This document shows, piece after piece, positions 27,001 to 30,000 of a stretch of DNA of 64,000 nt; position 1 is the stretch's first letter, and every line of letters starts with the position of its first letter. Made by a program: the position numbers. This stretch comes from Dehalococcoidia bacterium (GTDB lineage: Bacteria; Chloroflexota; Dehalococcoidia; Plut-88900): contig OZ240219.1 of NCBI GenBank assembly GCA_965197645.1, positions 2,784,001-2,848,000 of the forward strand, in the 5' to 3' direction.

Positions 27001-30000
27001 CCTTACCCATGACCTCAACCGGAGAAAGTACAGGCACGGCTCCGAATATCGTCGTTATCGGCGGTGGCACCGGTAACTACGTCGTGCTCAAAGGCCTCAA
27101 GCAACACACACCCAACCTCACCGCTATTGTCGCCATGAGCGATAGTGGAGGAAGCTCCGGACGCCTGCGGGACGAGCTGGGTCATCTGCCCCCCGGCGAC
27201 CTGAGACAGTGCCTGGTTGCCCTGGCCCCGGACAGCCACTCTGACCTCATCCTTCGCCAGCTGTTCGACTATCGCTTCGACCGGGGCACAGGCCTGGAGG
27301 GCCACAGCTTCGGCAACCTGTTCCTAGCCGCGCTAACAGAGATTTCCGGCAGCATCGCCGACGCCATCCTGGAGGCCGGCAGAATGCTCAATATCAAGGG
27401 CAGGGTCTTGCCGGTGACCCTGACCAAGACCAACCTTCACGCCAAGCTGGTTGATGGCTCCGAGGTGATCGGAGAAGCCAGCATCGACGTCCGGCGGGAG
27501 AAAGTCGGCGTCCGAATCGACTACGTTTACCTGAGTCCCAAGGCCTACATACATCCTCCGGCCATCACGGCTATCCAGGAGGCGGACCTGGTAATCATGG
27601 GCCCTGGAGACCTGTACACCAGCATCATCCCCAATCTGCTCGTCGACGGTCTCAGTGACGCCATCCGCCACTCCAATGCCCAGGTGGTGCACGTATGTAA
27701 CCTGATGACCAAGCCCGGCGAGTCCGATTCCTTCAAGGCCTCCGACTTTGTGAAGGAGGTCACGGAGTACATGGGCGCCGGCGCCCGCATCGATCACCTG
27801 CTTCTCAATACCGCTCCCATGCCGCAGAAGCTGGTGGACCGGTACAAACGAGCCGATGCCTACCCCGTGGAAGCGGACATCGACGAGTGCCGGGCCATCG
27901 TGCCCAACATCGTCCAGCTGCCGATGCTCGCTTCAGGGGCCACCCTGCGCCACGACTCCTATGCCCTCGCTCAAGCGATCATGGAGATAGCAGGGTCGGC
28001 GTCCTTCCGATCGAAGGACGCCACCGGGGCCGAGCTGGCCGCCGGTTAGCTCACCCCCCGCCCGGTCTGTTTGCCCTGCCACCCACCCCGGATTGCATCC
28101 GTAGGCGTCATGCCCCCTACCTCAAGAAGGGTCTTACTTACGAGGAAATCAATCGTGTATACTTCCAAATGAGTCGCCTGCAGCACAGGATTAATCGTTG
28201 CCGCTGATCCAGCGGTGACCTTTGCCGAGGTTGGCTCTACGCTCGGTGCTGAGTCAGTATCCATGATTCCACTGGCACCATTTCCGAGGAAAGCGAAATT
28301 CAGTTGCAGGCGACTCATATTTTATGTTTGACGCACAAAACATCAAGCCAGCACTAACTCGAAGCTCCGACCAATTTCAGGAGCTATTTTGGACCCTCAA
28401 ACGGCCTGAAGACATAGCTGACATGCTCGAAGTCTCCTATCGTGATCTCAACTATTGGATCTATCGCACCCCTGAACCGAGACGATACAGTGCATTTCTT
28501 GTTCCCAAAAAGAGTGGAGGGTCGCGCAGGATTGATATACCCAACACCAATATCAAGATATTGCAAAAGAAATTGAACCAGGTGTTGCGGTCAGTCTATC
28601 GTACCAAGCCGAGTGTGCATGGATTCGTAGTGGGGAAGAGCGTACGGTCTAACGCCCAGCAACATGTAGGGAAGCGTTGGGTATTCAATATCGATCTTCA
28701 AGACTTCTTCCCCTCGATCAACTTCGGACGAGTACGGGGCATGTTCATGGGTAAGCCGTACCACCTGCCCGAGAAAGTGGCAACCGTATTAGCCCATCTT
28801 TGTTGCTTCCAGGGCCATCTTCCGCAAGGTGCTCCCACGTCTCCGGTCATCAGCAACATGATCTGTGCCCAGATGGATAGCCAGTTGCAGCAACTAGCTC
28901 AGAGGAATGGCTCAATTTACACTCGATACGCCGATGACATAACGTTCTCTACTAATTGGAACAGGGTTCCGCTGGAGATATCCGCCACCAACAGCGTAAA
29001 TCAGATAATCCCAGGAGATAAACTCCGCCAGACAGTCGAGCAAAACGGTTTTTCAATAAACAGCAGGAAGGTGTGGTTGCGCGGCCGACACCGTCGGCAA
29101 GTAGTGACAGGTGTTACGGTCAACGATTACCCGAATTTGCCGCGGAAATTCACGAATCAGATACGGGCGATGTTATACGCATGGAGGGAACATGGGCTAT
29201 GTGCGGCCCAAGAACATTGGGCGAAAAAGCACTCTACCAAGCATCGAGTTTCTTGGCGAACCTATCATCAATTCAAGCGAGCTCTAAAGGGTAAGATTGA
29301 GTATTTGGGGATGATAAAGGGTCAAGATTCCCACACCTATCTTAAGTTTCTTGACCAATTGGGTGACTTGGACATCACCCTTACTCACGGAAAAGGAACA
29401 CCGTTACGGCAGCTCCTTCGACGTTATGACCAGTTATCGATTGAGAATGAATTGATTAGCCACCAGGCCCGAGGCTATTGTCTTGAAGAGATTATGAATG
29501 GTTTGTTTGAGCTGTCCGGGATTCTGGTTAAGGCCAGCTTCACCAGGAACGCAGGCGGTGAACAGATCGATGGGGCATTCGAGTTCGGAGGCTGGTACTA
29601 CTTGGTCGAGTGCCGATGGCGGTCCAAGAAAGCAAGTAAGAGTGATGTAGACGGGCTACGGGGCAAGTTAGATCTGTCCGGCGCTCAGACAATGGGTTTG
29701 TTCATTTCGGTAAACGGATGGTCTCAACATGTCGTGAATCTGCTCAAACAGACTCCAGATAAGAAAGTGTTGTTAATGAACGGGGACGATATTCGTGCGG
29801 TGTTAAAGAAAGACATTTCTTTTGGTTCCCTGCTTCAGGCTAAAGTCGAAGCACTGAATCTTCAATCCGAGCCCTTTGTTGGTGTCGCCGACATCCTCTC
29901 GAAGGAGTCTCTTTAGTAGGCTCTAAACATTGGCCAACTTTTCAAATTTGTGACATTGTTCGCCCACGTTGACGCAGATTGCTCAATTCGATTACCGACC

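Follow-up and report, generated by a model that had tools for sequence, protein, structure and literature searches.

The locus described here raises the question of whether a reverse transcriptase (RT) gene that carries no protease, TIR, or Toprim domain can be a single-gene retron, and if so, what serves as its effector. In the window, by which we mean the whole 64,000-nt stretch of DNA that was analyzed, an intact open reading frame (ORF) at 28324..29916 on the + strand encodes a 530-aa protein (plus stop), referred to here as RT-Mrr. The survey's finding was a 530-aa retron-type RT with an Mrr-like domain at its C terminus, and the ORF, a Pfam RVT_1 match (residues 60 to 251, 72.7 bits), and the Mrr_cat match described below were all obtained again. 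The RVT_1 match is the only one in the 3.21-Mb, one-contig genome.

The RT part (residues ~23 to 351; 28390..29376, +) was recognized by PADLOC, NCBIfam, and PDB matches. It contains the RT motif YADD (residues 202 to 205; 28927-28938, +) together with NAxxH, present as NAQQH (residues 110 to 114; 28651-28665, +), and VTG (residues 261 to 263; 29104-29112, +), which lie in regions X and Y, respectively, and are retron-specific by the definitions in the available text of PMC13712802. The residues of all three motifs were invariant or at least 90% conserved among 40 aligned homologues. The top PADLOC profiles were RT-Protease_XI (441.6 bits), RT-TIR_XII (432.9 bits), and RT-Toprim_I-C (387.9 bits), and these matches were confined to residues ~16 to 353. 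The NCBIfam scores fell under their cut-offs (367.6 versus 600 for TIR, NF042941, and 338.4 versus 450 for Ec67, NF038237); the former match covers the RT part only, and the latter spans only profile positions 8 to 318 of 572. No Trypsin family was matched in the protein by Pfam at an E value of ≤1, and no protease, TIR, or Toprim domain was found with Pfam, PADLOC, or NCBIfam. The nearest solved relative by sequence was Eco2/Ec67 (E value of 7.5e-56), which was also the top Foldseek match (9lm3_A, E value of 7.8e-29) of a full-length AF2 model with a pLDDT of 89.1. Judged by its sequence, the RT is a retron RT of the I-C/XI/XII group (clade 8). The survey's statements that this is the genome's only RVT_1 gene, that PADLOC and NCBIfam see the RT part alone, with NCBIfam below cut-off, that protease, TIR, and Toprim domains are absent, and that the predicted structure lies nearest to Eco2 all held when the searches and the modeling were repeated.

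The remaining C-terminal part (residues 352 to 530; 29377..29913, +) was identified as an Mrr-like PD-(D/E)xK domain from Mrr_cat, AF2, and fold matches. In the full protein, Mrr_cat (PF04471) matched residues 384 to 492 with 24.0 bits against a gathering cut-off of 21, as previously reported; when searched alone, the C-domain scored 26.8 bits, and Mrr_cat matched the C-domains of 11 of 14 family members. The Mrr_cat scores, at 24 to 27 bits, are modest. When modeled alone, the C-domain gave a pLDDT of 91.5 and an alpha-beta-beta-beta-alpha-beta core. Comparison of this domain alone with known structures, a check that the survey had named, placed restriction nuclease domains on top: VIA-align gave Z scores of 11.7 for N.BspD6I (167 residues aligned), 10.6 for the R.BspD6I small subunit, 9.3 for FokI, 9.2 for AF1548, and 8.3 for LlaBIII, which are consistent with one another but derive from a predicted model, and Foldseek matched MspJI at an E value of 5.7e-6. 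The matches that ranked highest and aligned over the greatest length are the domains with which type IIS, type IV, and type ISP restriction enzymes cleave DNA. Other matches included Card1, Can2, Cdn1, and the tRNA splicing endonuclease, which are RNA-acting or collateral-activated PD-(D/E)xK proteins, and the R2 structure 8gh6 was among the weaker matches of both the C-domain and the full-length models. PADLOC returned for the C-domain only a weak match to PDC-S02 (E value of 4.6e-4). A homodimer prediction, run without controls, scored 0.00 and weighs neither way on dimerization. Residues 352 to 530 are thus predicted to adopt the PD-(D/E)xK restriction endonuclease fold, which would be compatible with either DNA or RNA as the substrate.

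The acidic residues expected of such a nuclease are conserved. D416 (29569-29571, +) and E429 of the E429-C430-R431 triplet (29608-29616, +) were each present in 40 of 40 homologues while mean column identity was 62%, and E388, an acid in the upstream helix, is E or Q in the family. The helix acid, the D, and the E-x-(K/R) fall in the expected strands; we take these to be the motif positions on the basis of superfamily knowledge plus an alignment to Cdn1. Canonical PD-(D/E)xK enzymes have a catalytic Lys where the window copy has Arg431, and no residue other than these two occurs there among the 40 homologues (21 with K, 19 with R). The survey was right that the window copy has Arg in E-x-K, but the ECK consensus that it set against this is a bare majority only. 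Since the position is about equally K or R family-wide, the Arg is a common variant and probably no defect, and the survey's view of it as a weakness of the window copy was not borne out.

The same module extends far beyond retrons. A profile search with the C-domain found 2,316 representatives at an E value of ≤1e-10, and thousands of proteins contain the module, either standing alone or in other fusions, several of them in defense contexts. In the best 150 representatives of this wider family, the D equivalent to D416 was present in 144 of 144 ungapped rows and E429 in 148 of 150, while the catalytic Lys position was K in 92, R in 56, and Q in 2. The stand-alone carriers (~300 to 320 aa) are annotated "hypothetical" or "restriction endonuclease" and consist of a homologous C-terminal stretch of ~170 aa and a variable N-terminal stretch of ~140 aa that matches no Pfam family; one of them, P0128, is 41% identical over 230 aa. 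Stand-alone homologues adjoin a type I restriction-modification operon, lie between a DUF1156 methylase and DUF499, or adjoin a PIN gene, and a further homologue forms the N terminus of a NACHT/STAND protein. The module is therefore used in defense-type contexts. These stand-alone and NACHT carriers share the D, E, and K/R pattern with RT-Mrr but have neither an RT nor a noncoding RNA (ncRNA). The cleavage domains of Mrr, MspJI, FokI, and N.BspD6I likewise share with RT-Mrr the Mrr_cat assignment, the fold, the helix acid, the D, and the E-x-(K/R), whereas RT-Mrr differs from these enzymes in its fusion to an RT, its K/R alternation, and its lack of a DNA recognition domain and of a methylase partner. 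No homologue of the C-domain was found in phage genomes at an E value of ≤1e-5; viral contigs yielded nine distant ones (28 to 42% identity), and neither collection gave evidence for a phage-borne RT-Mrr cassette.

Directly upstream of the gene lies a 154-nt RNA of the msr-msd type (28167..28320, +), recognized by a covariance model, fold z score, and covariation. A perfect 14-nt inverted repeat (28169-28182/28305-28318) grows with G-U pairs to a 16-bp stem between the a1 arm (28169..28184, +) and the a2 arm (28303..28318, +), the latter ending 6 nt before the start codon. A 166-nt segment folds with a minimum free energy of −69.8 kcal/mol (z = −5.67), which none of 200 shuffled sequences equaled. 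The a1/a2 arms were first found by a best-stem search, which favors pairing; neither the MAFFT alignment nor the later search with the model depends on it. In the MAFFT alignment of 16 loci, 94.0% of the cells were paired, and 15 of 26 pairs showed compensatory change, compared to 7.5 ± 1.7 in shuffled alignments (0 of 500) and 4 to 9 in slid controls; all 11 modeled pairs of the a1/a2 helix were among those with such changes. A second helix, the conserved msr hairpin (28198..28218, +; 9-bp stem, loop AUC), was 97.2% paired in the 16 loci. Across 48 diverse loci, in an alignment that was itself fitted to the model, 25 of 26 pairs were compensatory, compared to 17.9 ± 1.7 in shuffles and 11 to 16 in slid controls, including 8 of the 9 hairpin pairs, and the hairpin loop and its flanking motifs are the most conserved columns. 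These results uphold the survey's description of a structured upstream RNA with an a1/a2 stem and no Rfam match, none having been found in 27800-30300 at an E value of ≤1.

The presumed msd template is a variable segment (28242..28288, +) closed by a short conserved helix (28242-28244/28286-28288). It ranges from 42 to 68 nt among the 16 loci, is not conserved in sequence, and does not fold into a hairpin significantly better than shuffled sequences do (median z of −0.54, with 1 of 16 below −2); the available text of PMC12916289 reports that the msDNA strands of Eco2 likewise form no hairpins. A 61-nt msd region had no match at an E value of ≤1 in a phage collection that is unlikely to include phages of this host, nor did its own genome contain a second site. 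G residues follow a1 at 28180, 28183, and 28188-28189, and no conserved unpaired G column that could mark a branching G was present across the 48 loci. Six nucleotides upstream of a1 lies a −10-like hexamer, TATACT, preceded by TG (28158..28163, +); a hexamer of the form TAnnnT with 5 or more of 6 matches occurs 5 to 14 nt upstream of a1 in 10 of the 16 loci, compared to 1.2% of random positions. A consensus promoter scan that required a −35 element as well reported no + strand promoter upstream of a1, and a consensus terminator scan gave none after the ORF.

The RNA is not peculiar to the Mrr fusion. The covariance model R1, built from this RNA, matched the window at full length with 133.4 bits (E value of 1.1e-34), the highest score among all loci. 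Of 80 related RT loci, 77 had a match to it, lying directly upstream of the RT gene and in the same orientation, as in the window. These include loci of RT-protease, RT-TIR, and RT-Toprim-like genes, for example, 6 of 6 RT-Trypsin_2 and 4 of 4 RT-TIR_2 loci fetched as well as Ec67-like loci. By these model matches, the RNA is the common clade-8 ncRNA. The survey's claim that the fusion is shared by Dehalococcoidia, SAR202, and others stands, whereas its implication that the RNA goes with the fusion does not.

The cassette is a horizontally acquired, low-GC insertion of ~2 kb between two core genes. The whole of it lies in an island (28050..30079) bounded on one side by the stop of cofD (28049) and on the other by that of a convergent AAA_5-type core gene (30080-31474, −); an MFS transporter gene is also among the neighbors. 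The island has a GC content of 0.47 to 0.52 compared to 0.58 to 0.64 for its flanks. In each of the 3 relatives examined, cofD converges directly on the AAA gene, with about 10 to 240 nt between them, and the RT-Mrr gene was not found in any of the 11 other genomes of the same family. The AAA_5-type gene was considered as a partner of the retron but was rejected, because 12 of 12 family genomes have it and it adjoins cofD where the retron is absent. No separate WYL or DnaB_C gene lies within two genes on either side of RT-Mrr. No tRNA genes were found when the window was scanned for them, which leaves no integration site linked to a tRNA. An imperfect 28-nt direct repeat (28029..28056 and 30049..30076; 71% identity, spacing 2020) with the exact 10-nt core TAGCTCACCC brackets the island; a 10-mer core was reached by 3 of 200 shuffles, and the repeats may be an insertion scar or chance. 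Compared with contigs from a second study, the island shows 2 differences in 2,246 nt while the flanks show 17 differing positions each (4 to 6%), and the near-identity continues past the island into the core genes on either side, for ~125 nt and ~90 nt. Element GC was lower than flank GC in 11 of 14 loci, the flanks were unlike between most loci, and only the window (imperfect) and L001 (exact, 28 nt), 2 of the 14 loci, showed flanking repeats.

The distribution of the fusion is patchy. Among the best 120 homologues listed, taken as 90%-identity clusters, identity was 49 to 100% and coverage 72 to 100%, mostly 89 to 100%, and RT-Mrr was present in 19 of 80 species genomes fetched. The taxa are Dehalococcoidia, SAR202, other Chloroflexota, Thermodesulfobacteriota, and a cultured Balneolaceae isolate, Aliifodinibius salipaludis WN023, whose copy (L033) is a divergent member; the loci closest to the window copy are from Chloroflexota and Thermodesulfobacteriota. 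Most Mrr-bearing RTs formed their own clade of 17 rows in a quick tree (99% SH-aLRT). A split form, in which an RT-only gene would have an Mrr-like gene as its neighbor, was sought and rejected, as the C-domain profile matched fused genes only at the 80 loci; it matched nothing near 25 cyanobacterial RT-only genes. The C-terminal parts found on clade-8 RTs are Toprim-like, protease, TIR, Mrr, and Schlafen-AlbA_2 domains and at least one group without a Pfam match; effector swapping appears to have a hot spot in these RTs. Some copies are broken: L006 and L020 are interrupted by internal stops, L021 breaks off ahead of the C-domain, and in L013 about 1.5 kb separates the ncRNA from the rest of the RT.

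How does RT-Mrr compare with known retrons? Eco2 (Ec67, type I-C) is also a single-gene retron, has an RT of the same group, and has the same order of ncRNA, RT, helical linker, and C-terminal metal-dependent nuclease, but its effector is a Toprim whereas that of RT-Mrr is an Mrr-like PD-(D/E)xK domain. According to the available text of PMC12916289, the Eco2 msDNA cages the fused Toprim, the phage nuclease DenB is the trigger, and the freed Toprim, which resembles DNA enzymes, nicks tRNA acceptor stems; its authors expect other fusion retrons to work similarly. Types XI (RT-trypsin-like protease) and XII (RT-TIR) (Mestre 2020, PMC7736814) share with RT-Mrr the clade-8 RT group, the single-ORF layout, and the upstream ncRNA family, and differ in their protease or TIR domain. 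The PD-(D/E)xK domain holds the place taken by the Toprim in Eco2, the protease in type XI, and the TIR in type XII. The survey's claim that the locus fits none of the 13 described types is supported in that no type I-C, XI, or XII effector domain is present, with the qualification that the RT falls within the known clade-8 group. In the available text of Toro 2026 (PMC13712802), 207 of 232 type XI-like loci are without protease, and the two protease-less lineages characterized there are from Bacteroidota/Bacillota; in that scheme, the RT-Mrr protein would be "type XI-like, protease-less." The lineage TXI_C2like and the lineage TXI_noncan_h described there also combine clade-8 RTs without protease, other C-terminal extensions, and upstream a1/a2 ncRNAs, but they have separate WYL or DnaB_C neighbors, whereas RT-Mrr has a fused effector and unrelated core-gene neighbors. 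L033 could be near TXI_C2like.

We put the probability at roughly 65% that the cassette is a horizontally acquired clade-8 single-gene retron in which an Mrr/FokI-type nuclease is gated by msDNA, as in Eco2, and it would then most likely be a one-protein anti-phage system. By analogy, a promoter just upstream of a1 would give one transcript comprising the ncRNA and the RT-Mrr mRNA. The RT would bind the conserved msr hairpin, prime on a 2′-OH beside the a1/a2 duplex, and copy the variable msd segment into msDNA, which, while bound, would keep the tethered nuclease domain from acting. Once some phage activity degraded or altered the msDNA, the nuclease would be freed and would cut nucleic acid, most likely DNA, and so stop the infection or the infected cell.

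The architecture and the msDNA gating may be as proposed and yet the freed domain may cut RNA (tRNA, rRNA, or mRNA) and halt translation. This is a possible but rather doubtful reading. It draws on Eco2, the closest characterized system and itself a tRNA nickase with a DNA-enzyme-like effector; on type IX retrons, whose effectors cleave rRNA and tRNA according to the available text of 10.64898/2026.07.14.738597; on Card1, Can2, Cdn1, and the tRNA splicing endonuclease among the fold matches; and on the unusual K/R alternation, which may signal nonstandard chemistry. However, the DNA cleavage domains of restriction enzymes are the top and longest fold matches, and the Pfam assignment is Mrr_cat. 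The Arg for the catalytic Lys, seen in the window copy and 19 of 40 homologues, could instead mean that the C-domain is a catalytically dead nuclease fold that binds msDNA or another nucleic acid ligand, with the activity elsewhere or in the RT itself; as the cassette holds one ORF, no other effector gene would in principle be needed. We regard this as improbable given that D416 and E429 are invariant amid 62% column identity (E388 being E or Q), that the same residues are kept in the stand-alone members and in the NACHT fusion, where the domain sits at the effector position, and that no neighbor is linked to the cassette, both flanking core genes being adjacent in relatives without it. A decaying, inert window copy within an otherwise real family is scarcely credible: broken copies exist (L006, L020, L021, and L013), but the window ORF is full length with all conserved residues, its ncRNA scores highest of all loci, and it differs from the copy in the second study's contigs at only 2 positions.

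The order of RT and C-terminal PD-(D/E)xK endonuclease is also that of R2 non-LTR retrotransposons, to which the fold matches are weak. It is highly unlikely that RT-Mrr is a nonimmune selfish retroelement whose restriction-like endonuclease nicks a target while the RT copies RNA into the new site. Besides the R2-like order and 8gh6, the direct repeats around the 2-kb insertion, the exact 28-nt repeat in L001, and the near-identical island between more divergent flanks would fit such an element. Unlike R2, RT-Mrr has an RT within the retron clade, next to the defense-proven Eco2, and an msr-msd RNA; it is single copy, and its insertion contexts are not site-specific. Moreover, the a1/a2 ncRNA is common to protease, TIR, and Toprim fusions, which have no integration nuclease, flanking repeats are confined to 2 of 14 loci, and near-identity running into the flanking core genes is better explained by homologous recombination than by retrotransposition. 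A very speculative variant, to which we give little credence, is that the hypervariable, non-hairpin msDNA product directs or licenses cleavage or that the RT-nuclease moves the 2-kb cassette in an R2-like manner. Such movement would explain why 2 of 14 loci have flanking repeats and why the island is near-identical between strains with flanks differing by 4 to 6%, and if either idea were true, retron msDNA would be more than an antitoxin.

The RT-Mrr fusion appears to be new to the retron literature searched. The available texts of Mestre 2020 (PMC7736814) and the Millman 2020 preprint name no RT-Mrr or RT-PD-(D/E)xK retron, nor do those of the Khan 2024 census preprint and the PLoS Biol 2025 environmental-retron paper; the supplements of all four may list it. 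The main text of Toro 2026 (PMC13712802) is without the words Mrr, nuclease, endonuclease, and Chloroflex; its supplements may differ and may contain RT-Mrr members unnamed. Literature searches for retron with Mrr, Mrr_cat with reverse transcriptase, and retron "type XIV" turned up no such fusion by name. The survey's judgment that the fusion is undescribed is thus supported for the literature searched, supplementary tables aside.

Retron classes rest on the effector, and no PD-(D/E)xK or Mrr effector is included in the 13 types in the available text of Mestre 2020 (PMC7736814) or in fusion types I-C, VII-A1, XI, and XII as listed in a 2026 Eco2 paper; the RT-Mrr family would therefore add a further single-protein retron. 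It would be the second fused-nuclease retron after Eco2 and, as such, a natural test of msDNA caging as a general rule. The family is not rare, with the best 120 clusters listed all 49 to 100% identical to the query and members in 19 of 80 species genomes, and it is tractable, requiring about 1.75 kb and one protein, with a divergent member in the cultured A. salipaludis WN023. Its nuclease module, in turn, represents a large, unstudied Mrr-like family that alternates between K and R at the catalytic Lys position and is widespread on plasmids.

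The RT-Mrr open reading frame (28324-29916, + strand) is intact and encodes 530 aa. Pfam places RVT_1 at residues 60-251 (72.7 bits) and, in the full protein, Mrr_cat at residues 384-492 (24 bits against a cut-off of 21). The top PADLOC models were those of single-gene retron RTs, namely, RT-Protease_XI (441.6 bits), RT-TIR_XII (432.9 bits), and RT-Toprim_I-C (387.9 bits). These models cover only part of the protein (residues ~16-353), and the NCBIfam retron models likewise fit the RT part only, below their cut-offs (TIR, 367.6 against 600; Ec67, 338.4 against 450); the restriction of both sets to the RT part agrees with the survey's finding. 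The nearest solved protein by sequence is retron Ec67, or Eco2 (E = 7.5e-56, residues 28-288), with Ec86 and further retron RTs ranking next. A Foldseek search with a full-length AF2 model (pLDDT 89.1, with 40 homologues as input) also ranked Eco2 structures best (9lm3_A, E = 7.8e-29), in agreement with the earlier claim of Eco2 as the nearest structure. The RT motifs YADD (202-205), NAQQH (110-114), and VTG (261-263) are fully or almost fully conserved across 40 homologues, and NAxxH and VTG are described as characteristic of retron RTs (Toro 2026, PMC13712802). In present terminology, the RT is "type XI-like." It is, as claimed, the sole RVT_1 match in the whole genome (3.21 Mb, one contig).

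The C-terminal domain was analyzed using an alignment, A3, of residues 352-530 with the matching part of 13 related loci. Mrr_cat was matched in 11 of these 14 sequences (best E, 1.4e-8), and the A3 profile found one match among PDB sequences, the CARF-nuclease Cdn1 (E = 1.1e-4), in an alignment that includes the D and E-C-K stretches. The AF2 model from A3 (pLDDT 91.5, pTM 0.87) has the order helix, three strands, helix, strand, helix, strand. A comparison of this domain alone with known structures, a gap named in the survey's finding, matched PD-(D/E)xK restriction-nuclease domains. Foldseek against the PDB returned MspJI (E = 5.7e-6), AspBHI, AF1548, Cdn1, R.BspD6I, HindIII, EndoMS, EcoT38I, FokI, and LlaBIII. 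VIA-align against 48,161 representative chains returned N.BspD6I (Z = 11.7, 167 residues aligned), followed by the R.BspD6I small subunit (10.6), FokI (9.3), AF1548 (9.2), and LlaBIII (8.3). All five of these matches above a Z of ~8, below which matches can be generic by the tool's own guidance, are PD-(D/E)xK nucleases; the lower ones included more restriction, CRISPR-ancillary, McrC, Avs4, and Shedu nucleases. Pfam, PADLOC, the RT motifs, and the C-domain fold thus bear out the description of a retron-type RT fused to an Mrr-like nuclease. Residues R383, G384, D416, E429, and C430 are invariant in 40 full-length homologues, and position 431, which corresponds to the Lys of E-x-K, is occupied by K in 21 of them and by R in 19. 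The Arg431 of the window copy is therefore a normal state of the family and no lesion or weakness peculiar to this copy.

Upstream of the ORF, 28169-28184 pairs with 28303-28318 as an a1/a2 stem, and the 166-nt stretch has a folding energy of -69.8 kcal/mol (z = -5.67). Among 80 related loci taken from species genomes via protein alignment, all 16 intact or near-intact RT-Mrr loci have a stem of 11 to 16 bp, differing in sequence, that encloses 136 to 170 nt and ends 3 to 30 nt before the start codon. The arms were obtained by a best-stem search in 15 loci and by a separate search in L004, where the script picked a different stem. A best-stem search favors pairing; the MAFFT alignment and the covariance-model search are independent of the arm positions. 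RNAalifold on the MAFFT alignment of the 16 loci gave 26 pairs, with 94.0% of cells paired and compensatory change in 15 pairs, compared to 7.5 ± 1.7 in shuffles (none of 500 reached 15) and 4 to 9 with the partners slid. All 11 a1/a2 pairs covary, and the structured RNA with a covarying stem proposed earlier is upheld. The alignment also contains a near-invariant 9-bp hairpin with the loop AUC (28198-28218, + strand). Two features expected of a retron did not emerge: a comparison of 48 loci gave no conserved column of unpaired G after a1, and the variable, presumed msd segment (42 to 68 nt) folded no better than shuffles (median z, -0.54; 1 of 16 below -2). For Eco2, the msDNA strands are reported to lack hairpins and to join in a three-way junction (PMC12916289). 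A -10-like hexamer lies 5 to 14 nt upstream of a1 in 10 of the 16 loci, compared to 1.2% of random positions; in the window, this hexamer, from the same count, is TATACT (28158-28163).

A covariance model built from the 16-locus alignment gave full-length matches immediately upstream of the RT gene, on its strand, both in the window and in 77 of the 80 loci, the exceptions being L054, which includes no upstream DNA, L074, and L075. The matches cover all six Trypsin_2 loci, all four TIR_2 loci, Ec67-like loci, and the single SLFN_AlbA_2 locus. The upstream RNA is therefore genuine, yet it is an ncRNA that this RT group has in common and no mark of the Mrr fusion; its reported presence across RT-Mrr loci stands, and the tie to the fusion does not. 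In 48 matches picked to span the range and aligned by fitting to the model, 92.1% of cells were paired and 25 of 26 pairs showed compensatory change, compared to 17.9 ± 1.7 in shuffles and 11 to 16 with the partners slid. At the Trypsin_2 RT loci, the matches lie directly upstream (E = 4.6e-14 to 1.5e-4), at about 3812-3994 in L055, L062, L070, L076, and L080 and at 950-1111 in L049. For type XI, the main text of Mestre 2020 (PMC7736814) reports no recognizable ncRNA; validated type XI ncRNAs are mentioned in the Khan 2024 census.

In a word-indexed protein search, the best 120 clusters listed had 49 to 100% identity, mostly at 89 to 100% coverage, and 38 of them carry a precomputed PF04471 match. 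The C-domain is present in 19 of the 80 species-genome loci (two cut by contig ends and two broken by stops), from Dehalococcoidia, SAR202, other Chloroflexota, Syntrophorhabdales, Thermodesulfobacteriota, Planctomycetota, and unclassified MAGs. This agrees with the distribution in MAGs described by the survey and adds one cultured isolate, Aliifodinibius salipaludis WN023 (L033; 38% identity overall, Mrr_cat 27.9 bits, motif E-A-K). In a quick ML tree of 77 RT domains (SH-aLRT support only, midpoint root), a 17-row clade at 99% holds 13 Mrr-bearing rows, the partial L013, L015, and L017, and the truncated L021. This grouping makes one main origin of the fusion likely, as far as such a tree can tell. 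L012 and L033 fall outside, in an unresolved remainder with TIR, protease, Toprim-like, and other forms, and additional independent fusions may have occurred.

Other C termini were found on RTs of clade 8, the retron group of types I-C, XI, and XII. For instance, a Chloroflexota MAG encodes a clade-8 retron RT fused to SLFN_AlbA_2 (Schlafen; 47.9 bits, residues 375-510) at L078:4001-5569 (+ strand), with an ncRNA model match upstream. SLFN_AlbA_2 is a further fused retron effector outside the 13 described types; the available text of a 2026 bacterial Schlafen paper mentions retrons once, in a different sense. Nine RT proteins of 562 to 584 aa (L018, L034, L043, L051, L053, L067, L068, L074, and L079) have no Pfam family in their last ~190 aa, and the Ec67 fusion profile, of 572 positions, aligned to them only up to about position 380; one or more additional effector domains, as yet unnamed, may be present in them. 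Finally, 25 cyanobacterial RT-only genes of ~345 to 380 aa form one branch (L019, L023-L032, L035-L039, L046, L050, L052, L056, L057, L063, L071, L075, and L077). An ncRNA match lies upstream of all but L075, and no Mrr-like module homologue was found within about 4 kb of them.

The cassette has a GC content of 0.47 to 0.52, compared to 0.58 to 0.64 outside, and lies between two convergent genes, cofD (stop at 28049) and an AAA-type gene (stop at 30080). In the three relatives examined, these two genes abut, ~10 to 240 nt apart, compared to 2,030 nt in the window, and the AAA-type gene is present in 12 of 12 family genomes. Neither neighbor therefore counts as a member of the system, and the unit consists of a putative promoter, an ncRNA, and one gene. 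The RT-Mrr gene was not found in any of the 11 other genomes of the same family (completeness, 80 to 94%; seven single-contig). Across 14 loci, GC content of the element was below that of the flanks in 11, and the only related flanks were those of close relatives, which form two groups (L002/L007 and L003/L004/L016). Two of the 14 have direct repeats on either side of the ~2.0-kb cassette: an imperfect 28-nt repeat in the window (28029-28056 and 30049-30076), whose exact 10-nt core was equaled in 3 of 200 shuffles, and an exact 28-nt repeat in L001 (3698-3725 and 5700-5727). The two repeats differ from each other in sequence, and the other 12 loci showed no flanking repeat beyond chance. Contigs of a second study (X3) carry the island at the same site, with 17 differences from the window in 27638-27923, 2 in 27924-30169, and 17 in 30170-30569; this is a comparison of contigs only, and X3 and a further contig set, X4, represent one sample. 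Since the island differs far less than the surrounding core genes, the contigs, if sound, suggest that the island and ~100 nt of each flank were recently exchanged between diverged strains, for which homologous recombination would be the simplest route. Decayed copies also occur. Internal stops or frame breaks interrupt the RT-Mrr gene of L006 and L020; the L021 protein stops at 353 aa, and its C-domain is missing from the downstream sequence as well; and L013 has ~1.5 kb between its ncRNA (2269-2425) and the remaining RT, whose first residue is 135. Long-read sequencing errors may be present in some of the assemblies concerned.

The Mrr-like module is also found outside retrons. The C-domain profile had 3,627 matches at E ≤ 1e-3 among 1.84 billion representative proteins (2,316 at E ≤ 1e-10 and 363 at E ≤ 1e-30). 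Among the best 150, 16 have at least 440 aa and 87 have 270 to 345 aa with the module at the C terminus; of four proteins of at least 440 aa that were scanned, P0167 and P0186 are RT fusions, and P0135 and P0235 have no RVT_1 match. In the same 150, D416 is kept in 144 of 144 ungapped sequences and E429 in 148 of 150, with K in 92, R in 56, and Q in 2 at the third position. The shorter proteins, annotated as hypothetical in their sources, have N-terminal regions of ~140 aa that are unlike each other and gave no Pfam match; P0128 and the window protein share 41% identity over 230 aa. They represent a large uncharacterized family of ~300 to 320 aa with a variable N terminus and an Mrr-like module with E-x-(K/R). 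Five genomes of the same class encode module proteins. In three, the gene has neighbors of the defense type: it immediately follows a type I hsdR-hsdS-hsdM operon, is flanked by genes for a DUF1156 methylase and a DUF499 protein, or lies beside a PIN gene. In the fourth, an 862-aa NACHT/STAND protein that also has a receiver domain carries the module at its N terminus; and in the fifth, the gene is at a contig edge adjoining sulfate-assimilation genes. Module genes were located at L085:6738-7670 (-), L086:6002-6958 (+), L087:6455-7357 (-), and L088:1633-4218 (-) and on plasmids such as H1 and H12. Homologues of 28 to 51% identity occur in 1,387 plasmid records, 1,132 of them from Klebsiella, annotated as "restriction endonuclease" or "hypothetical"; one Rhizobium copy is beside a SIR2 gene, and one Klebsiella copy is near an Abi gene. 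These contexts fit a portable effector module without proving such a role.

We put the probability that the window element is a genuine retron cassette at about 0.9. How it may work is best approached through Eco2, the only characterized fused-nuclease retron, whose effector is Toprim in contrast to the PD-(D/E)xK domain of RT-Mrr. An RT-Toprim trimer is held by msDNA with the nuclease caged; the phage nuclease DenB starts msDNA decay, and the freed Toprim nicks tRNA acceptor stems (PMC12916289). The authors expect the other fusion retrons, VII-A1, XI, and XII, to use msDNA binding alike (PMC12916289). Beyond the existence and conservation of the protein and the RNA, we infer every step of the scheme for RT-Mrr: msDNA from the variable segment would keep the PD-(D/E)xK domain inactive, and infection would cause the msDNA to be lost or altered, releasing the domain. 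By analogy with Eco2, the cassette probably works as such an msDNA-gated nuclease in defense, a reading held less firmly than that of a retron cassette. DNA is the more likely substrate because the closest folds to the modeled domain are the non-specific cleavage domains of type IIS, IV, and ISP restriction enzymes, and RNA is a serious alternative.

The main text of Mestre 2020 (PMC7736814) describes 13 retron types, with clade-8 RTs bearing Toprim (I-C), protease (XI), or TIR (XII); it does not contain "Mrr" and states that rare extra types may turn up in metagenomes. The Eco2 paper of February 2026 (PMC12916289) gives I-C, VII-A1, XI, and XII as the fusion retrons. In the text of Toro 2026 (PMC13712802), 207 of 232 type XI-like RTs in SPIRE lack the protease; the two lineages characterized, from Bacteroidota and Bacillota, are defined by separate WYL or DnaB_C genes, and "variable C-terminal extensions" are mentioned, never a nuclease. 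Full-text literature searches, together with term look-ups in the main text of individual retron papers, found no RT-Mrr or RT-PD-(D/E)xK retron; supplementary tables may list such proteins unnamed. The survey's statement that the element fits none of the 13 types therefore holds for the fused effector, which is new, and not for the type XI-like RT or the ncRNA common to clade 8. RT-Mrr matches known clade-8 retrons in RT group, ncRNA family, and layout and differs from them in its fused effector and its own RT branch. Its one-protein design is tractable, and it extends retron diversity in a solid and testable way, although specialists would expect finds of this kind.
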